Shown: one piece after another, positions 14,278-41,271 of the stretch | Layout: each line of letters starts with the position of its first letter | Numbering within the stretch: the first letter of the stretch is position 1 | Virus record (IMG/VR): IMGVR_UViG_3300029613_000341 | Span: 1 to 42,454 of that record | From: a virus | Taxonomy: Duplodnaviria; Heunggongvirae; Uroviricota; Caudoviricetes | Reading direction: 5' to 3' (one strand) | DNA: 42,454 nt | The notes under the pieces: generated by a model | Databases searched by the model: none | What the model was told of the DNA's origin: nothing | What the model saw: only the letters and a program-made list of their open reading frames with translations | Program-made: the position numbers and the translations under genes

Positions 14278-14591
14278 GAAACGTTGCCCCCAGGAGGATT
14301 CATTCTGATGGGGGCTAGTTTGGGCAACGAGTGAAATAAGGTGTAAGGTCATTTTGATAAATGATCGTCTGCTTTGTGCAAGATGCAAACGTTTCTTCTG
14401 CTAACTTTCGTTAATTAACGAATGGCAGACTAATTCGCAACGGATAATCTGAATTTTGTAAGATTATGGGCATTTCTATAAAATTTACTAATAATAACCT
14501 TACAATGTACACTACCGATTGAATTTTCCATAGTTGGCCTTTGGCTCTACTTACCATCTATGTTTATGTATTTTATCAAAATGGACTAAAA

Positions 14592-16484
14592 ATGAACAAT
14601 ACGTACATCAAAGACTATATAGAATATTACCTTAGCCTTACAACTGAACCTCAATACGCCATTATGCTTAAAGGTGCTTGGGGATCAGGTAAAACTTGGT
14701 TCATTGAACAAGTTCTTGAAGAATATAAGCAGAAGAATTCAGAGTTTAAATTTCTAAAAGTGAGTTTGTATGGCGTCAACTCTATTAAACAGATTGAAGA
14801 TGAGTTCTATCGTCAACTTCATCCTGTCCTATCAAACAAAGCCCTTATCTTTGGTGCAAATGTACTAAAAAATACGCTTAAGGCTACTTTCAAGATCGAT
14901 CTCAATGGCGATAATAAATCTGACGTTGATGTCAATACCAATGTTCCCACCATTAATCTTAACGATTTTAGTAGAAAACCAGATGGTTTTGTGCTGGTCT
15001 TTGATGATATCGAGAGAGCTGGTATAGATTTACCAATTTTATTTGGATATATAAACCACTTTGTAGAAGTAAACGGATACAAAGCGATCTTGGTTGCCAA
15101 TGAAGAAGAAATAATCAATAGAGAAAAGCGAATAAATAATGATGATGAGAAATCTAGCAGCGAATACATGAGAACAAAAGAAAAGCTTGTTGGTAAAACA
15201 TTTGAAGTAACGTCAGATTTACATAGTGCTTGTAATGTTTTTTTGGGCGTAATTAGCAGTTTACACGTTGCTAATATATTTAAAGAAGATATGCAGGCCA
15301 TAGAAGACATCTATGTGTCGGCGAAATATAATAATCTAAGACACTTGAGGCAGTTCTTTCTTGATGTACAACGCATCATTTCCCTTTTGGGAAATAAATA
15401 TGTCAGCAACGACGATTTTATGAGGGTATTTTTCCAGCAGTTGTTAATTTTCTCGATAGAGTACCGGGGAGGGAACCTTAACTACGAGGAATTCGATTCA
15501 ATCAGCAATGTTAATTATGGTATGTTTTTAGGTAAAGAGCGTACCAAAACTAAGTATGACATGATCGTCGAGAAATATTCATCTCCTGTATTAACCGAGA
15601 AGTTACTGGATGGTGCGTACTGGAGGGAGCTAATCTGTGATGGAAAGGTAACGAGTGAACTTCTCGCTCAGTTGGATATTACGCGATTTTTTAGAAGCAC
15701 CGATGCCCAAGCATGGGAGTATTTGTGGAACTATCGAGAACTTAATGAAACTATGCTTAATGAGCAGTACGCCATTGCCAAGGATAATCTATTTTCAGGT
15801 AAGATCACTTCCTTAGGTGAACTCCTGATGACCGCGAGTATTTTGCTGGACATGGCGAAAGAAGGTCTAACAACAGATGATGTTCATGATCTCATAAATG
15901 AGACAAAACAGAATATAAATAATTATTATAATAGACTTAGAGCTGAAGATATACATAAGGAATATGCGCAAACGCATTATAACGAATTAAGGGCATGGCG
16001 TGGCTTTGGTTTTCTTGACAGGGATAGCGATGAATTCAAACTCATTATTGAGCATATTGAGATAGCGAAGAAGAAACGGTTTGATGAATCAATTCCGGAA
16101 TTTGCGTTGCAGTTCAGCGATGAGTTGCAAAGGGGAAACTTATCGTTTGTATCTGAATTGAGTCATTCTAATAATAGGCAGTTAAATCTTCATAATGTGC
16201 CTTTTTTACACTTGGTTCCTCCTGAAGTTTTCATTGAAAGCTATAGGAAACTTGACCCAGTCCTCATGAGGAAACTGGCATTTAGCTTGCGGAATCGTTA
16301 TTCTGATGGGGATGCTAGAACCAGACTGACCGAAGAATACAACTGGTTGATTAACCTAAAAGAGATAGCTGTAGATTTCACTCAAAACGCAGCCAATAAC
16401 TCCTTTCAGGTTTTTCACGTAAAGTTTTTTATTGACTATGTATTAACTAGCGCAATCAAATTCTTTACTGAGGGAACTGATTAA
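14592..16484 (+). CDS. P-loop NTPase (Walker A GAWGSGKT, Walker B VLVFDD; possibly KAP-type), ~630 aa
   Basis: ATG at 14592 (ORF open from an alternative TTG at 14541); Walker A and B motifs present; long C-terminal region without motifs I recognise; strongly AT-rich; followed by a terminator. Confidence 0.7.
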   Translation: MNNTYIKDYIEYYLSLTTEPQYAIMLKGAWGSGKTWFIEQVLEEYKQKNSEFKFLKVSLYGVNSIKQIEDEFYRQLHPVLSNKALIFGANVLKNTLKATFKIDLNGDNKSDVDVNTNVPTINLNDFSRKPDGFVLVFDDIERAGIDLPILFGYINHFVEVNGYKAILVANEEEIINREKRINNDDEKSSSEYMRTKEKLVGKTFEVTSDLHSACNVFLGVISSLHVANIFKEDMQAIEDIYVSAKYNNLRHLRQFFLDVQRIISLLGNKYVSNDDFMRVFFQQLLIFSIEYRGGNLNYEEFDSISNVNYGMFLGKERTKTKYDMIVEKYSSPVLTEKLLDGAYWRELICDGKVTSELLAQLDITRFFRSTDAQAWEYLWNYRELNETMLNEQYAIAKDNLFSGKITSLGELLMTASILLDMAKEGLTTDDVHDLINETKQNINNYYNRLRAEDIHKEYAQTHYNELRAWRGFGFLDRDSDEFKLIIEHIEIAKKKRFDESIPEFALQFSDELQRGNLSFVSELSHSNNRQLNLHNVPFLHLVPPEVFIESYRKLDPVLMRKLAFSLRNRYSDGDARTRLTEEYNWLINLKEIAVDFTQNAANNSFQVFHVKFFIDYVLTSAIKFFTEGTD

Positions 16485-16788: not shown

Positions 16789-16896
16789 CGCGCGCTGTAT
16801 GCCTGAAGTGGCTAAAATAGTATCTGTCATAGGTACAACTTAGTGTAGTATCATCCATATAATCCATTGAAATATAATCGACTCTCATTAGAGGTG

Positions 16897-17895
16897 ATGA
16901 TGAACGGAATCTGGTACGAAAACACTCATACACGCATTCCTAATTTTGAAACAACAGTACATCAAAAGCACAAATTCGGTTACGCTTATGAAACAACAAG
17001 TCATTTTGTGCATCTGTATGGGCGTGACGTGGGATTTAATGTAATATCAGTTGGGTTAACTGTTATTGAGCAACGAAGTGGAACTCTCAATGATTGGGTT
17101 CGGAGAGTATTTGGGGCTCAGAACATATCTCCTTTAGATAATGAAATTGGACATGTAACTAGGGGAGTGTGGCGGCCATCCTTATATTATGTCAATGATA
17201 CAGAAACAGCATTAGGTATCGATGAGTTTGAAAAAAGAGCAACAGAGCAAGCTCTAAGAGTTTTGATAGAAAAACTCGATGATATTTTTCTATATGTAGA
17301 ACCAAGTGCCCATGGTTTGATTTCTTACAGTCATAAATGTAGAGAGCTATTAATTCTTGCTTGTACTGAGGTTGAAAATCAATGGGTGTCAATCATTGGT
17401 AATTCGAATTTATCTCGTTCAAATGGTCGATACTCCACAAATGATTATGTGAAATTATTAGATAAGTGTTATTTGTCTGAATATAAAATTCAATATTTGA
17501 ATTATGACGGATTAAGGCATTTCAAACCTTTTGATGGGTGGAATGCAAGTACCCCTACAACATCTTTGTCATGGTATAATGCATATAATAAAACTAAACA
17601 TGATAGATCAGGAGCATTCCACTTTTCCACTTTAGAAAATGTGATGGATGCAGTTGCTGCTTGTGTTGTAATGTACTGTGTAAAATATGGCCCGTTTAGC
17701 TTATTGGAAGCCAATACGTCTCTATCAACGATCGTTAATCAAAACTTTTCAATTTCATTAGATAATAGCAATCCAGCAAGTTATTACATTCCTGAAATTG
17801 AACTTCCACCGGATACAAGAACGGATTTATTAATTTATGATTGTTATCGAGAAAACCATAATAAAGCATGGGTCACTGATCCCCTAGTGCTCTAA
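16897..17895 (+). CDS. Hypothetical protein (~332 aa), unknown function
   Basis: ORF 16867-17895 (alternative TTG); ATG at 16897/16900 with GAGGTG RBS; AT-rich; no motif I recognise. Confidence 0.5.
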   Translation: MMNGIWYENTHTRIPNFETTVHQKHKFGYAYETTSHFVHLYGRDVGFNVISVGLTVIEQRSGTLNDWVRRVFGAQNISPLDNEIGHVTRGVWRPSLYYVNDTETALGIDEFEKRATEQALRVLIEKLDDIFLYVEPSAHGLISYSHKCRELLILACTEVENQWVSIIGNSNLSRSNGRYSTNDYVKLLDKCYLSEYKIQYLNYDGLRHFKPFDGWNASTPTTSLSWYNAYNKTKHDRSGAFHFSTLENVMDAVAACVVMYCVKYGPFSLLEANTSLSTIVNQNFSISLDNSNPASYYIPEIELPPDTRTDLLIYDCYRENHNKAWVTDPLVL

Positions 17896-17951: not shown

Positions 17952-18578
17952 TTATATATCAATAGAGTTTTGAAATTTTAATAACTGCCATCTTGTTAAT
18001 AGTGGTTTTATTGCTATGTTGTGTTGGGTATTTATTTTTAAACCTTCGAATTTCGAATATCCATTTTCCAAGGCTTCCACTGAAAAATGAATGGTTTTTG
18101 TTATCGGGTTTATAGCACAAAGATTTAGGTCATATAAAGTATGAATGTCACTTCTGAGCAATAATCCATTGCTAATATGATTGTGACTATCGTTTCGATA
18201 TACATTAATGTGAGCAGCATCAAGAATATCAACAAGCTTACAGCCCGTAACCGCACAAGTAGGATTTGATTTTAATAGCTGGTCGCGAAATGTTTTTTGC
18301 CCACTTCGTTGTTTTATTTGCCGTTCTACAATTTGCCGTTGATCTTCACCCATTAAAGTGGGGGTGTCTTTATCAGCTTCGCTGGCGTTGAGCTCCAGAA
18401 TAATAGTATGTTGGGCGGTAAGCAAAGCAACAGCCCATTGATAGTTAACTTCTTGGATGGACATTTGCCCATTGTAGCGTGGAGTTTCATCTATAAATTG
18501 TGACATTGTAATATTGGATAATTTACGGTACTGGTTGCCGCAGTATGCTATAAATTCTTTAGCTGGCTCAAAAACCAC
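17952..18578 (-). CDS. HNH endonuclease domain protein (C-terminal part of an apparently split gene)
   Basis: HNH motif CAVTGC...LDAAHI...NGLLLRSDIHTLYDLNL; annotated start is GTG; the frame stays open upstream to a stop at 18669-18671, overlapping the end of the upstream ORF. Confidence 0.7.
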   Translation of the reverse strand: MVFEPAKEFIAYCGNQYRKLSNITMSQFIDETPRYNGQMSIQEVNYQWAVALLTAQHTIILELNASEADKDTPTLMGEDQRQIVERQIKQRSGQKTFRDQLLKSNPTCAVTGCKLVDILDAAHINVYRNDSHNHISNGLLLRSDIHTLYDLNLCAINPITKTIHFSVEALENGYSKFEGLKINTQHNIAIKPLLTRWQLLKFQNSIDI

Positions 18579-20008: not shown

Positions 20009-21771
20009 AAAATCTCCACAATATTGCTGGTATTGGCGGACTCGCCCTGCAGCGGTTCGTTAAACAGTGCGTGCATTGTTGCCCAGGCCAGATCGGCATG
20101 GCTGGCTTCTTCGCTGCGGCTGGCTTCATAGGTCGGGCGGTTGCCGCTGGCGGTGGTGGCGCGACGGATTGCCATGAATGACTGCGCAATGTCGGTGTGC
20201 CCGGCGTCAAACTCAAGACGGCGGTGGCTGATAATGTCGTAGGCCTTGAGTACCAGGGCGTTTTTAACGTTGGGGTTGTAGACAAACTCCCGGACGGCAG
20301 GAAAAAACGCTTTCACGTTCTCGTAAACCCCGTGACCAACGCCGGTTGAGTCGATGCCGATATAGGTCACGTTGTACTGTTCGGTCAGTTTTTTGATGGC
20401 GTCAGCCTGGGCGCGAAAGTCCATTCCGCGCCACTGGTGACGCTCAAGAATGCGGAACTTACCGCCTGGCACGGCTGGCGGTGCCACCACCACGCATCCG
20501 GCGCTGTCGCCGTTCTGCGTACCTTTTGCCGGGTCATAACCGATCCACACTTCGCGCCAGCCAAACGGGCGCAGGGCCAGTGCATGAAAGTCGGTCCAGA
20601 CTTCCCAGCTGTCCACCATGCACGCCTGCAATTCGCTGAGCGGGAACACGGACGCGAGATCGTCCACGAACTCGCACATCAGCAGGTTCTGGTATTCGTC
20701 AGGGCTGTACTCCATGCGCAACTGGTCAAGGTCGAACAGGTTACAGCCGCCGCGCACCGCATCTTCCACGGTGACTATCTGGCGGTATTGCCCGTCTGCG
20801 CACAGCAGGCCGGGGGCCAGATTGCTGTGGGACAGGTCGATGTCCACCTTGTCAGCTTTGTTGCGCCCACGGTTGAACAGCGCACCGGACCAGAACGGAT
20901 AAGCACTGTGGGTCAGACTGGATGGTGTGGAAAAATAGGTCTGCCGCCATTTCTTGTGAATAGCCATACCGGAAGCCACTTTGCGTAGCTCCTGAAATTT
21001 CGGTATCCAGAAATATTCATCCAGATACAGGTTGCCGTGATAACTCTGGGCCGTGCGGGCATTGGTGCCGAGGAAGTAAAGCGTGGCCCCGTTAGGAAGC
21101 ACCATCGGATCGCCTTTCAGCTCCACCTCCACTTCTTTGGCGAAGTCGATGATGTACTGCTTAAAGACGTGGGCCTGTGCCTTACTGGCGGAAAGGAAAA
21201 TCTGGTTACGCCCGGTAAGCAGGGCGTCAATCAGGGCTTCACGGGCAAAGTAAAAGGTCGCGCCGATCTGGCGTGACTTCAGCAGGTTGCGGATGCGGTT
21301 GGTTTTTCCGGCTTCCCACCAGTGGCGCTGGTAGTTGAACATGGAGGAATGGAAGATTTCTTCCAGCTTCTCAATCTGTTCATCGGTGAAGACATTTTTT
21401 TCCGGCTGACGGCGCGGGCCTTTGTTGCGGTTGGCGACGTTAGGATTTAAGTCGGCTTCGTTGCCGCCATTGTTAAACTTGCCGATCCGCGCGTGGCGCT
21501 CAGACTGGCGCGCCAGCAGGTCAATCTCTTTGAAATCTTTCCCTTCTTTGTGCTCCTTCATAATGAGCTGGCAGTAGCGTGCGGCGGTGGTGAGCTGCAT
21601 CTGATCCAGCGGCCCATAGTCACCCCACTTGTCGCGTTTTTTCCAGCTGTGAACGGTTGCAACTTTCTCGCCCAGCATTTCAGCAATGCGGGCTACGCGG
21701 TATCCCTGAAAGTACAGCAGCATGGCCTGCCGACGGGGATCGAGATCTGCGGGTGTCAGTGTGGTGTTCAT
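20005..21771 (-). CDS. P: Terminase large (ATPase) subunit (P2 gpP family)
   Basis: 588 aa; divergent from the O-N capsid operon as in P2. Confidence 0.9.
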   Translation of the reverse strand: MNTTLTPADLDPRRQAMLLYFQGYRVARIAEMLGEKVATVHSWKKRDKWGDYGPLDQMQLTTAARYCQLIMKEHKEGKDFKEIDLLARQSERHARIGKFNNGGNEADLNPNVANRNKGPRRQPEKNVFTDEQIEKLEEIFHSSMFNYQRHWWEAGKTNRIRNLLKSRQIGATFYFAREALIDALLTGRNQIFLSASKAQAHVFKQYIIDFAKEVEVELKGDPMVLPNGATLYFLGTNARTAQSYHGNLYLDEYFWIPKFQELRKVASGMAIHKKWRQTYFSTPSSLTHSAYPFWSGALFNRGRNKADKVDIDLSHSNLAPGLLCADGQYRQIVTVEDAVRGGCNLFDLDQLRMEYSPDEYQNLLMCEFVDDLASVFPLSELQACMVDSWEVWTDFHALALRPFGWREVWIGYDPAKGTQNGDSAGCVVVAPPAVPGGKFRILERHQWRGMDFRAQADAIKKLTEQYNVTYIGIDSTGVGHGVYENVKAFFPAVREFVYNPNVKNALVLKAYDIISHRRLEFDAGHTDIAQSFMAIRRATTASGNRPTYEASRSEEASHADLAWATMHALFNEPLQGESANTSNIVEIF

Positions 21772-26888: not shown

Positions 26889-27282
26889 AGCGGTGCCTTA
26901 TGTCCGCAATAACCCGGACAAACTGCATCTGTTTGTGGATAACGGTTCGCTGGTTGCCACGGGGGCCAACTCCATGTCGTGGGAGTACCGTTACACCCTG
27001 AACGCGGTGATTGAGGATTTCAGCGGCGACCAGAATCTGCTGATGGCCCCGGTTTTGCTGTGGCTGAGGGATAACCAGCCCGATGCCATCAATAACCCGG
27101 CGTTACGGGAAAAACTATTCACCTTTGAGGTGGATATTCTGCGCAACGATGTCTGTGATATCAGCCTGAACCTGCAACTGACGGAGCGTGTGCTGGTCAG
27201 CACTGACGGTAGTGTGTCGAGCGTTGAAGCTATAGCGGAACCTGATGAACCTGAAGAAATGTGGACGGTGAAACGTGGCTGA
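26851..27282 (+). CDS. R: Tail completion protein R (P2 gpR family)
   Basis: GTG start at 26851; recalled similarity to P2 R (SLR.AL, FVDNGS, NQPD). Confidence 0.8.
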   Translation: MNKPQSLRHALNKAVPYVRNNPDKLHLFVDNGSLVATGANSMSWEYRYTLNAVIEDFSGDQNLLMAPVLLWLRDNQPDAINNPALREKLFTFEVDILRNDVCDISLNLQLTERVLVSTDGSVSSVEAIAEPDEPEEMWTVKRG

Positions 27283-27721
27283 ACTGCAGAAAGTGGACGA
27301 CTGGCTGAGTGCCTTGCTGGCGAATCTGGAGCCAGCCGCAAGAAGCCGCATGATGCGCCAGCTGGCGCAGGAACTGCGCCGGATACAGCAGCAGAACATC
27401 AGGATGCAACGCAATCCAGATGGCAGTAGTTATGAACCGCGACGGGTAACAGCACGCAGTAAAAAGGGGCGCATCAAACGTCAGATGTTTGCAAAGCTGC
27501 GAACCACAAAATACCTGAAAACTGCCGCCAGCGCCGATTCTGCCAGCGTGCAGTTTGAAGGCAAGGTACAGCGCATTGCCCGTGTTCACCATTACGGCTT
27601 GCGTGATCGCGTCAGCCGTAAGGGGCCACAGATACGTTATGCTAAACGTAGGTTACTTGGAATTTATGATACTGATTTTGATATTATAGAAGAGATAATC
27701 ATGAATTTTTTGATTCGTTAG
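27275..27721 (+). CDS. S: Tail completion protein S (P2 gpS family)
   Basis: GTG start; recalled similarity to P2 S (LLANLEPAAR..MMRQ.AQELRR.QQ.NI..QRNPDGS.Y.PR.VTARSK.GRI.R.MFAKLRTT.Y, QRIARVHHYGLRDRVSRKGP). Confidence 0.85.
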   Translation: MAELQKVDDWLSALLANLEPAARSRMMRQLAQELRRIQQQNIRMQRNPDGSSYEPRRVTARSKKGRIKRQMFAKLRTTKYLKTAASADSASVQFEGKVQRIARVHHYGLRDRVSRKGPQIRYAKRRLLGIYDTDFDIIEEIIMNFLIR

Positions 27722-28880
27722 ATTCATTAATTTTCTTAAAGTATGAGTCTATTTTTTCAATTAATAAATTGATGCTTTTTATAAATTCTTTTGTTTCTTT
27801 CTCTGTTGGTTCATGTGATGTATGAGCTATTTTGTCACGTAATTCTTTCCTATTTTTATTTGCATGTTGCCACTCAAGTGGCGCAATTTCGGGTACAGAG
27901 ATGTTAAAGAGTTGTTTGAATAGTTTTTTACATCTATCATCGAACTTCCAGTTTTTATTTAATGTTTCTTTTGTCTGGCATTCATTGATACCATTGCGAT
28001 GAAAGGCATTAATAATTTTTCTGAGAATATAGCTTTCAAGGCCTGCTGATGCTTCAATTACGGCTGATCTAAATGCACCTTTATGAACAAGATTGTCTGC
28101 TCTAATCAATAATAGTTCAGGATGTTCATTGAATTCATTTGACATTAAACGTTTTTTGAAATTATCAATGAGACTTTCATCGTGTTTATACCAGCTTTCT
28201 CTCATTAATGGGGTGATTACTCCAACTAAAGGAATTGCACTTATCTTAATACCATCGCAATAATGCTCTTGTAACACTCCGTTGGTAAATCCTGAGCCAA
28301 CTTGATAAAGAGATATCTCGTCTGCAAATTGATCTTTAAAGGCAACTCTATACTGTTTTATAAAGTGGTTTATTATTCCGATGCATTCCTCTGATCTTTT
28401 AGGTGGAAATATCTCTCTAGCAGTTTTTATTTTTCTCTCTAACTCTATTTTTTTATCTATATCTTGCTGGCTCATTTTGGATAGGAACATCTCAGCATCT
28501 TCCACAGATGGGAAGTTATCTTCTTTCCTTATTTGGTTTCTTATAGAGTTGATTAGTTCTTCATGTGATATTTCTAAAAGGTCAAAACATTCCCAATAGT
28601 TGGCGAGAGAAATAATAGTCCGGCATTTCATTATCCCTCTTTCATTTGTGTGATGTGGTAGTAGTTGTTCTCTGGTACCGATTAATAGGGTTTGAGGGAA
28701 TAAGCTTGCATCTTTAAATAGTGCATAGTAATCGTTGTGAACTGTTAAGCGTAAATGGTTATTTTCATATAGAAAATCATAATCACCATCTGGAATATTG
28801 AGGACATAAGGCAACTCGACCAAGTAACGTGCAGCAAAGATCATTTCAGTCATCTCCATATGAGAATTCAATTGTGCCAA
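27699..28880 (-). CDS. Hypothetical 393-aa protein (moron between S and V, antisense to the late operon)
   Basis: Long minus-strand ORF in the otherwise plus-strand late region; very AT-rich; occupies the slot I recall as orf30 in P2; no motif I recognise. Confidence 0.55.
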   Translation of the reverse strand: MAQLNSHMEMTEMIFAARYLVELPYVLNIPDGDYDFLYENNHLRLTVHNDYYALFKDASLFPQTLLIGTREQLLPHHTNERGIMKCRTIISLANYWECFDLLEISHEELINSIRNQIRKEDNFPSVEDAEMFLSKMSQQDIDKKIELERKIKTAREIFPPKRSEECIGIINHFIKQYRVAFKDQFADEISLYQVGSGFTNGVLQEHYCDGIKISAIPLVGVITPLMRESWYKHDESLIDNFKKRLMSNEFNEHPELLLIRADNLVHKGAFRSAVIEASAGLESYILRKIINAFHRNGINECQTKETLNKNWKFDDRCKKLFKQLFNISVPEIAPLEWQHANKNRKELRDKIAHTSHEPTEKETKEFIKSINLLIEKIDSYFKKINESNESKNS

Positions 28881-28935
28881 AAATCATACACTGCCACAAC
28901 GATGAAAAAAAATCTTGCTTTGCAACTATAGAAGG

Positions 28936-29514
28936 ATGAATGCACAACTAACCGAAATCATGCGCCTTATCACCAACCTGATCCGCACTGGTGTAGTCAC
29001 CGAAGTGGACAGGGAAAACTGGCTTTGCCGGGTGAAAACAGGCGACTTAGAAACCAACTGGATCAGCTGGCTGACCCTGCGTGCCGGGAATGCCCGGACA
29101 TGGTGGCGACCATCGGAAGGTGAGCAGGTGGTGCTGCTGAGTCTGGGCGGCAATCTGGAGACCGCCTTTGCGCTGCCCGCTGTCTATTCGAATCAGTTCG
29201 CACCACCGTCGACGTCGGCGGACGCCTGCGTGACAGAACATCCTGACGGTGGCTGGTTTGAATACGAACCCGCCACCGGGCGCTGGTATGTCAGGGGCAT
29301 CAAATCCATGGTTATTGAGGCTGCCGACAATATCACCCTGAAAACCAGTGAGTTTGTGCTGGAGGCTGACCGCACGCGTATTAATAGTGAAGTAGTGATC
29401 AATGGCGGCGTTACCCAGGGCGGCGGTGCGATGAGTTCTAACGGGATCGTGGTTGATGCGCATCAGCATACTGGCGTCCTGAAAGGCGGCGATACAACCG
29501 GAGGCCCGGTATGA
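28936..29514 (+). CDS. V: Baseplate assembly/spike protein V (P2 gpV family)
   Basis: ATG at 28936 with AGAAGG RBS; conserved position; glycine-rich C-terminus. Confidence 0.85.
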   Translation: MNAQLTEIMRLITNLIRTGVVTEVDRENWLCRVKTGDLETNWISWLTLRAGNARTWWRPSEGEQVVLLSLGGNLETAFALPAVYSNQFAPPSTSADACVTEHPDGGWFEYEPATGRWYVRGIKSMVIEAADNITLKTSEFVLEADRTRINSEVVINGGVTQGGGAMSSNGIVVDAHQHTGVLKGGDTTGGPV

Positions 29515-40788: not shown

Positions 40789-41271
40789 TTATTCATCTGG
40801 GATCTCACCCGTTTCAAGAAAATGTATAAAGCCAGGCTCATCTATGATGATTGTGCCTTTCATCCTGGCTGCCGATACTTTTGATGGGCCTGCATTGTAA
40901 CCGCAACAGAGCATCTGAAGGCTTTGGGTTACAGAGGTTCTTACCGTTAATCCTTGTTCATTCGCCTTATCAACCAATCTTTCTTTATCTGCTTTCTTAA
41001 ATCCGGTGAAACACACATCGAATGTATTTTTTTTCGGACCAGATTGCTTAGTGAGATGTGAGTAGTTTTCGGGGAGGAATGACGCGCATTCCTGAATGGC
41101 TTGTTCTGGTGAATCGTACTGTTTAAGAATGCGGTCTTTTCGGAAGGTTTTTATTCGATCGGTGTTCTTACAAATGCCCTGTATATGATTTTCGCTATAA
41201 CTGATGCTCTGTATAGAGTGAACACCGATACGACCATTTGCATTGATGTAAACAAAGTGAAGTTCTTCCAT
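40789..41271 (-). CDS. Small protein with C-terminal BRCT-like domain and unknown N-terminal domain (moron next to attR)
   Basis: 160 aa; C-terminal FDVCFTGF...QGLTV.TSVTQSLQMLCCG.NAGPSKVSAARMKGTIIIDEPGF resembles the BRCT domain of NAD-dependent DNA ligases; AT-rich; lies between ogr and att. Confidence 0.55.
   Translation of the reverse strand: MEELHFVYINANGRIGVHSIQSISYSENHIQGICKNTDRIKTFRKDRILKQYDSPEQAIQECASFLPENYSHLTKQSGPKKNTFDVCFTGFKKADKERLVDKANEQGLTVRTSVTQSLQMLCCGYNAGPSKVSAARMKGTIIIDEPGFIHFLETGEIPDE

Follow-up and report, generated by a model that had tools for sequence, protein, structure and literature searches.

A low-GC gene lodged in antisense orientation between tail genes S and V of a P2-like (Peduoviridae) prophage encodes a protein in which an N-terminal region of ~235 amino acids is fused, within one polypeptide, to a predicted C-terminal HEPN domain carrying an invariant Rx4H motif. 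We lean toward a function for this cargo protein as a single-gene, HEPN-based abortive-infection or exclusion RNase, a reading that fits the motif and the cargo setting of the gene and that retains, as the most likely function, the exclusion or defense role first proposed in the initial annotation. The family comprises uncharacterized, uncurated HEPN-domain proteins found in a subset of P2-like prophages, and conceptually it lies near known prophage HEPN defenses.

A selected gene at the boundary of two late operons

The cargo gene and its immediate surroundings are arranged as follows within the window, the whole 42,454-nucleotide stretch of DNA that was analyzed.

27275 to 27721, plus strand: tail completion gene S, whose final ~20 codons fall within the AT-rich cassette, the terminal 23 nt overlapping the 3′ end of the cargo gene
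27660 to 28870 (approximate), no strand assigned: AT-rich variable cassette, delimited by alignments A2 and A3, composition and a repeat scan
27699 to 28853, minus strand: cargo coding sequence, 384 amino acids from ATG 28853, based on the ORF list, PHROG 28299, RefSeq and the N-termini of homologs
28873 to 28890, plus strand: TGT-N12-ACA dyad, the predicted Ogr/Delta-type activator site of the V promoter (P_V), based on a pattern search, conservation and P2 annotation
28936 to 29514, plus strand: baseplate spike gene V, which opens the V operon

As initially described, a long AT-rich ORF of 1.18 kb (27699-28880) occupies the minus strand between S and V, and its TGA stop codon (27701-27699) falls inside S, giving a 23-nt overlap between the 3′ ends of the two genes. 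GC content is 0.31-0.36 over positions 27600-28950 versus 0.53-0.61 on both sides (~0.32 versus 0.57). The length of 393 amino acids was counted from a mechanically assigned TTG, whereas RefSeq entry WP_228337576.1 from E. coli E2348/69, an accession for which our literature search found no paper, and PHROG 28299, which matches residues 10-392 of the TTG-started frame, place the start at ATG 28853 to give 384 amino acids. Most homologs begin at the next ATG, 28844 (MIFAARYL, 381 amino acids), which is preceded 9 nt upstream by GGAG. TTG 28880 lies inside the activator-binding dyad of P_V and is an unlikely initiation codon; the true start is probably ATG 28853 or 28844, corresponding to 384 or 381 residues. 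Residue numbers below refer to the 384-residue form.

Every database name attached to the ORF is only “hypothetical protein”, which would suit a chance open frame in an AT-rich spacer rather than a gene. Against this reading, a 393-codon open frame has a probability of ~6e-14 at this composition, Nei-Gojobori dN/dS values between diverged copies are 0.07-0.15, homologs with as little as 19% identity keep the motifs described below, and the fold prediction is confident. These observations refute a chance origin, whose remaining probability we regard as vanishingly small, and the cargo ORF is a real gene under purifying selection.

In P2, the Ogr/Delta late activators bind a dyad of the form TGT-N12-ACA. 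Seven such sites occur in the window, below the number expected by chance, and four of them lie just upstream of the first genes of late operons, at 21760 and 21818 (the divergent P-O region), 28873-28890 (V) and 33546 (FI). The P_V dyad is centered 55 nt before the V ATG, a geometry identical to that of P2, and it is invariant in nine loci. On the opposite strand the same dyad precedes the cargo ATGs 28853 and 28844 by 19-28 nt, a spacing incompatible with activation of the cargo gene in the canonical −55 geometry. The P2 record lists, in order, S, a putative O-operon terminator, the minus-strand, AT-rich and non-essential Orf30 (261 amino acids), the pV activator site, and V with a transcription start at its ATG. 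This layout bears out the initial assignment of the slot to the orf30 position of P2. S and V are, however, transcribed as parts of separate late units, so that the cargo gene is located between operons, at the boundary of the O and V operons, and it leaves the P_V activator dyad intact; the earlier view that it interrupts a late operon is therefore incorrect.

Resemblance to P2 Orf30 (NP_046770) is confined to position, antisense orientation and AT-richness (GC ~0.34 in P2 orf30). The two proteins are not homologous (hhalign probability 0.13%, E = 0.43), and P2 has a bidirectional terminator between S and orf30 in place of the overlap seen here. A terminator scan detected no intrinsic terminator for the minus-strand gene and none after S, while a promoter scan found no consensus sigma-70 promoter upstream of the cargo gene. 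The sole upstream space for a cargo promoter, 28854-28935, overlaps the P_V region. No Rfam RNA family was matched within positions 27200-29300.

A polymorphic slot for dispensable cargo

P2-like phages have three variable regions, of which orf30 is one (PMC3091744, PMC6823313). Together with the old/tin and Z/fun regions, it is a site of horizontally acquired genes in these phages (PMC3091744); phage R18C, for example, carries another ORF in this slot (PMC6823313). Similarity of the present phage to relatives with an empty slot ends near 27660, within the last ~20 codons of S, and picks up again at the P_V dyad. A repeat scan found neither direct nor inverted repeats flanking the cassette, and hence nothing to indicate insertion by a transposon or an integrase-type element.

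The slot is empty, with a 68-bp intergenic region, in phages 500465-1, Klebsiella 4LV2017, Fels-2 and SopEPhi. Other phages carry different minus-strand genes there, namely Cartapus gp14 (176 amino acids), SEN8_17 (311), RE-2010 gp27 (283), ST437-OXA245phi4.1 gp18 (288) and ST512-KPC3phi13.2 gp27 (169), and no record in the phage collection has the cargo gene described here. SEN8_17, an FRG-domain protein, is matched by the PADLOC candidate defense model PDC-S15 (E = 3e-31); the remaining four have no Pfam match and, with PADLOC, a single marginal one among them (E = 0.0068).

Of 5426 complete E. coli genomes, 1052, or about a fifth, contain the R-S/V-W backbone. Among 49 informative slots from an evenly spaced sample of these genomes, 30 are empty and 19 hold other cargo in at least 10 size classes, with annotations that include DUF6216 (as in BL21(DE3)), DUF2971, DUF5677, PcfJ and hypothetical protein. 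The slot is polymorphic in E. coli. The present cargo occurs in 21 of the 5426 genomes at ≥99.4% identity, including that of the EPEC reference strain E2348/69. Presence/absence polymorphism in close relatives and an atypical composition are both observed, and the cargo gene is dispensable. Its description as a moron therefore stands insofar as close relatives have an empty slot or another antisense gene; the recent acquisition that the term implies does not, given that divergence of the gene tracks that of its flanks.

Family distribution and divergence

A word-indexed search of 5.8 billion proteins returned only 20 clusters, all labeled hypothetical protein and all devoid of Pfam domains, and PHROGs places the protein in family 28299, annotated without function. 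Exhaustive profile searching of 1.84 billion representatives recovered 198 relatives at E ≤ 1e-3, of which 45 scored E < 1e-30 and were nearly all full length at ~375 amino acids. A tail of relatives of 400-460 amino acids has only the C-terminal 150 residues in common with the family.

In each of 17 P2-like loci examined, the homolog (33-99% identity) lies antisense in the S-V slot. The enterobacterial loci read comprised 12 from IMG/VR together with those of P0002, P0006, P0019 and P0020, at 33-100% identity, with Escherichia, Enterobacter, Pantoea and metagenomic hosts, and every enterobacterial homolog with a readable context occupies the same slot of a P2-like phage in the same orientation. 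Most homologs overlap S by 8-35 nt at their 3′ ends, and GC content is 0.33-0.36 versus 0.55-0.62 in the flanks at 9 of 9 loci measured. Identity of the cargo protein was compared with that of the flanking core proteins R, S, V, W and J.

Cargo identity 99-100%: flank identity 98-99%
Cargo identity 90%: flank identity 87%
Cargo identity 72%: flank identity 83%
Cargo identity 41-46%: flank identity 63-66%
Cargo identity 33%: flank identity 57%

Cargo and flank divergence are correlated with a Spearman rho of 0.89 across 14 loci that are not independent of one another. This pattern of sequence divergence suggests long residence in the slot within the carrying lineages or, failing that, exchange confined to similar phages. 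In contrast, P2 defense loci are reported to swap rapidly and without such correlation (PMC13586616), and the S-V cargo would represent a candidate defense gene that, rather than being swapped, diverges in step with its phage.

Distant members (20-34% identity) are located outside P2-like phages and have a GC content near that of at least one flank. They were found beside an IS110 transposase in Pseudoalteromonas phenolica, in Verrucomicrobiota-type MAGs (Opitutaceae, Verrucomicrobiae) and a low-GC IMG/VR contig, and in a metagenomic cluster of uncharacterized genes that includes a YobI-type ATPase. No conserved partner gene adjoins any distant member examined, and in the window the cargo gene fills the slot, leaving no room for an antitoxin ORF. 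Across GTDB species-representative genomes, the close-family profile identified no locus and the distant subgroup profile three non-phage loci; neither the wide alignment nor subgroup A7 brought up anything further in IMG/VR.

Predicted HEPN domain with an invariant Rx4H motif

Three segments of the coding sequence are distinguished from structure prediction and conservation.

28140 to 28853, minus strand: N-terminal region, residues 1-238, comprising a predicted beta-meander (4-89), a helical segment (97-172) and a beta-hairpin (193-210)
27702 to 28136, minus strand: predicted C-terminal HEPN domain, residues ~240-384, with invariant R262 and near-invariant E267 in the RSAIIEASAALE helix
27822 to 27839, minus strand: Rx4H codons, R339-D-K-I-A-H344, the predicted HEPN RNase catalytic site, from the sequence read and its conservation

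An AlphaFold2 monomer model built on a 20-sequence alignment (mean pLDDT 82.8, pTM 0.75) shows strands between residues 4 and 89, helices at 97-172, a beta-hairpin at 193-210 and an all-helical C-terminal domain at 226-383. The latter is modeled as the four-helix up-down bundle of ~110-150 residues that typifies the HEPN fold. An Rx4-6H motif is the signature of HEPN ribonucleases, enzymes whose activity is metal-independent, and the bundle contains one as R339-DKIA-H344. Just seven positions (E13, P15, N162, G192, R262, R339 and H344) are invariant in 40 full-length members with 19-68% identity, and R339 and H344 are also invariant among 20 closer homologs, the motif reading RDKIAH here and RHKIAH in the consensus. 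On the grounds of modeled fold and motif conservation, the C-terminal third is a HEPN domain. The initial annotation saw no recognizable domain in this protein, a statement overturned by the modeled fold and the invariant motif.

Curated family libraries leave the protein unplaced. Weak Pfam matches across family members are all sub-threshold and of HEPN type (HEPN, DUF4145, Hypoth_Ymh and RiboL-PSP-HEPN; best E = 0.0038), and an indirect chain runs through the distant relative P0119, which the family profile detects at E = 2.5e-7 and which in turn scores 20.8 bits against Pfam HEPN (cutoff 22). The cargo protein matches no curated HEPN family of Pfam or NCBIfam at threshold, and the best of the PADLOC 2.0.0 models is CARF_HEPN_Csx20 at only E = 0.19 over residues 236-390. 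A sequence search of all PDB chains returned nothing at E ≤ 10, nor did Foldseek against the viral BFVD at E ≤ 0.001.

Several further candidates were set aside. A tandem HEPN arrangement was considered for R218-x5-H224, which is invariant in the 20 close homologs and not in the wider family. Similarity to Pfam tRNA-synt_1e and TIGR cysS (E = 3e-4; 20.7 bits versus a cutoff of 27) appeared in 1 of 40 members and was attributed to chance, as was a group II intron maturase match at E = 0.04.

The N-terminal region of ~235 residues matches no known fold. Its invariant residues are E13 and P15, which form part of an ELP motif, together with N162 and G192, and we propose that it serves as a sensor or autoinhibitory module.

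Proposed mechanism and alternative roles

The Rx4H site is the one catalytic signature that the family conserves. HEPN RNases, as reportedly set out by Anantharaman et al. 2013, require two HEPN domains that together build a composite active site, and they are toxic in their active state. With no antitoxin to restrain it, a HEPN protein encoded by a single gene would consequently have to inhibit itself. In the mechanism we propose, the lysogen would make the cargo protein at a low level and in an inactive state, with the N-terminal module restraining the HEPN domain. The module would lift this restraint on detecting a product of infection by another phage, or some consequence of that infection. 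Two or more subunits would then bring their HEPN domains together into the composite RNase site, which would cleave tRNA, mRNA or rRNA, translation would stop, and the infection would abort through abortive infection or superinfection exclusion. RNase activity, autoinhibition, trigger, expression in the lysogen and anti-phage phenotype are all properties that we infer for this protein. Support for a defense role comes from a real, selected gene in a polymorphic cargo slot, from a stand-alone module that lacks an antitoxin, and from the precedents of HepS and the P2 old/tin and fun loci. Pointing the other way are the occurrence of HEPN domains in non-defense contexts and in catalytically different forms, the absence of a PADLOC match beyond E = 0.19 or of a curated HEPN family at threshold, the lack of a consensus promoter upstream, and divergence that tracks the flanks (rho 0.89, n = 14 non-independent loci), which could mean a phage-intrinsic role.

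Such a role, in which the protein serves the phage itself for instance as an RNase that processes or degrades transcripts of host or phage in lytic growth or lysogeny establishment, or as a weapon against P4-type satellites or host defenses, would be consistent with long residence in one slot and divergence in step with the flanking core genes. A cargo 5′ end interlocked with a P_V activator site that is itself conserved in all loci compared, and the presence of every enterobacterial homolog examined in a P2-like phage, point in the same direction. We nonetheless consider it unlikely: most close relatives are viable phages that lack the gene (500465-1, 4LV2017, Fels-2 and SopEPhi), distant homologs exist outside phages, and the gene opposes the late operons, so late transcription would work against its expression. 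A selfish toxin or addiction element that stabilizes the prophage, or a mobile toxin, in either case without a defense role, appears highly improbable, given that the slot holds no antitoxin-sized partner ORF, no neighbor is conserved across contexts, no Rfam RNA was found, the cassette has no flanking mobility repeats, and a single stable toxin offers no obvious addiction mechanism. The HEPN domain of the cargo protein might instead be a non-nuclease of the ligand-binding, protein-binding or nucleotidyltransferase-partner type, with the protein having some other role in lysogenic conversion. This we find very doubtful, as the Rx4H dyad is the most conserved feature of the family and R262, R339 and H344 are among the seven positions invariant in 40 sequences.

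The defense reading can be extended to a more specific proposal, decidedly unlikely when taken as a whole, in which the gene is an old partner of one P2-like branch, the N-terminal region is a new sensor fold, expression is tied to the late switch, and low GC is kept by selection, for instance through H-NS control. The cargo 5′ end abuts the Ogr/Delta site of P_V, and read-through from the O operon would run antisense across the gene body. Speculatively, Ogr occupancy and this antisense read-through could lower cargo expression during the prophage's own lytic cycle. With such wiring, a prophage could silence its own RNase when lytic, a form of self-immunity by transcriptional architecture.

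Relation to known systems

The Gifsy-1 prophage encodes a HEPN protein, HepS, that by itself can both sense and abort infection; activated by a siphovirus tail-tip protein, it cuts tRNA anticodon loops (PMC13043305). HepS (PDB 9oik) is, however, a single-domain protein of 218 amino acids without the additional ~235-residue N-terminal region of the cargo protein, with which it has no sequence similarity (PDB sequence search, nothing at E ≤ 10), and it is encoded at another locus of a lambdoid phage, as opposed to the S-V slot of a P2-like phage. The sequence homology and single-domain tetrameric architecture by which HepS-type proteins are recognized were thus not found in the cargo protein.

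Single-protein HEPN Abi families (AbiU2, AbiJ, AbiD/F, ApeA/DUF4145 and RiboL-PSP-HEPN) resemble the cargo protein in combining a variable N-terminal module with a C-terminal HEPN Rx4-6H motif and in their location on mobile elements, but the cargo family never reaches a curated threshold for these families, and PADLOC, which models these Abi proteins, gives no match. RnlA and LsoA are type II toxins of ~350 amino acids with an NTD-NRD-HEPN organization. A three-domain toxin of this kind was rejected, as the N-terminal model has no such similarity and there is no antitoxin gene.

Among the hotspots of P2, old/tin (A-Q) and Z/fun share with the S-V slot the character of AT-rich, non-essential and polymorphic cargo sites. 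The old/tin and fun loci are validated P2 defense hotspots with many single-gene defenses (PMC9122126, PMC9519451), whereas the S-V slot appears in the literature found as a variable region only, and we found no paper treating it as a validated defense hotspot.

Significance

HEPN Abi proteins of prophages form an established class, so one further member offers an incremental advance. A recurrent occupant of the long-unexplained orf30 slot is nevertheless now predicted to join an HEPN RNase to a sensor-like module, which provides a concrete and readily testable candidate for a new single-gene anti-phage protein, one present in E2348/69, an EPEC strain in standard laboratory use. The predicted HEPN occupant suggests that the S-V slot is a defense cargo site alongside old/tin and fun. 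Should the gene prove to be an old partner of its phage branch with expression tied to the late switch, the S-V slot would constitute a further P2 defense hotspot, governed by its own regulatory logic.

Cassette exchange in the S-V slot

The AT-rich cassette that carries the HEPN-domain cargo gene takes in the last ~20 codons of the tail completion gene S (window 27660-27721), the 3′ end of which overlaps the cargo gene. The C-terminus of S is recoded (…LLGIYDTDFDIIEEIIMNFLIR) and is unlike that of relatives with other cargo. Because these codons lie inside the cassette, swapping it also replaces the 3′ end of S, an essential tail gene. The slot also has other occupants. In Salmonella phage SEN8 the gene there (locus L024 740-1675, minus strand) encodes a protein with an FRG domain and a match to the PADLOC candidate defence model PDC-S15, and the E. 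coli occupants (genome matches H136-H147) include proteins annotated as DUF6216, as in BL21(DE3), as well as DUF2971, DUF5677 and PcfJ. All alternative occupants examined run antisense to the late genes.

At the opposite edge lies the activator-site dyad of the late promoter P_V; in nine diverged loci, nothing else between the cargo gene and V is invariant. The V start codon lies 55 nt downstream of the dyad centre (window 28873-28936; L032 1740-1809), a spacing which implies that V would be translated from a leaderless transcript. This geometry agrees with the P2 record, whose annotation puts the start site of the V operon at the V start codon.

The prophage of E. coli E2348/69 (L001, NC_011601 873272-882453; L005) is rearranged, and its S gene is found in two pieces, with residues 1-137 encoded at one site and residues 119-148 adjoining the cargo gene. 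The cargo gene is now adjoined by a gene for a 188-aa 'recombinase family protein' and by the tail sheath operon. This layout is consistent with an inversion with its breakpoint at the cassette edge.

Base composition and distant relatives

GC content was compared between the cargo gene and its phage in the window (27699-28853) and in loci L004, L006 and L009-L015, with 41-100% identity among the encoded proteins. In all nine loci measured, the cargo gene had a GC content of 0.33-0.36 versus 0.55-0.62 for the phage. Distant family members from other hosts mostly have GC contents near those of their own flanks. The persistent AT-richness in P2-like phages could reflect selection, for example for control by H-NS, or a restricted exchange pool.

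In P0120, a distant relative of 632 aa, residues 258-404 match the C-terminal domain of the cargo protein family and residues 439-625 match the Pfam domain HEPN_AbiU2 (E = 6.8e-9), which makes it a possible two-HEPN protein. The gene for P0063, a family member with 22% identity on metagenomic contigs (L033/L034), closes a co-directional series of unannotated genes in which a 1280-aa YobI-type ATPase comes first and a DUF6998 protein is also encoded; this series may be an uncharacterised defence island.

Candidate defence genes elsewhere in the prophage

In the window, three genes occupy the classical old/tin hotspot, which lies between replication gene A and portal gene Q. A further ORF, close to the right-hand end of the prophage, has a weak PADLOC match.

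Genes of the old/tin hotspot and right end
14541-16484, plus strand: hotspot gene 1, 647 aa, matches PADLOC candidate defence model PDC-S49 (E = 1e-159)
16867-17895, plus strand: hotspot gene 2, 342 aa, no match in the PADLOC search
17952-18578, minus strand: hotspot gene 3, 208 aa, HNH-like (E = 2.5e-9)
40789-41271, minus strand: right-end ORF, 160 aa, weak match to the C-terminal part of PDC-S48 (E = 1.8e-7)

Given the hotspot genes, including the PDC-S49 match, the prophage in the window has two or more distinct loci that are candidates for defence.
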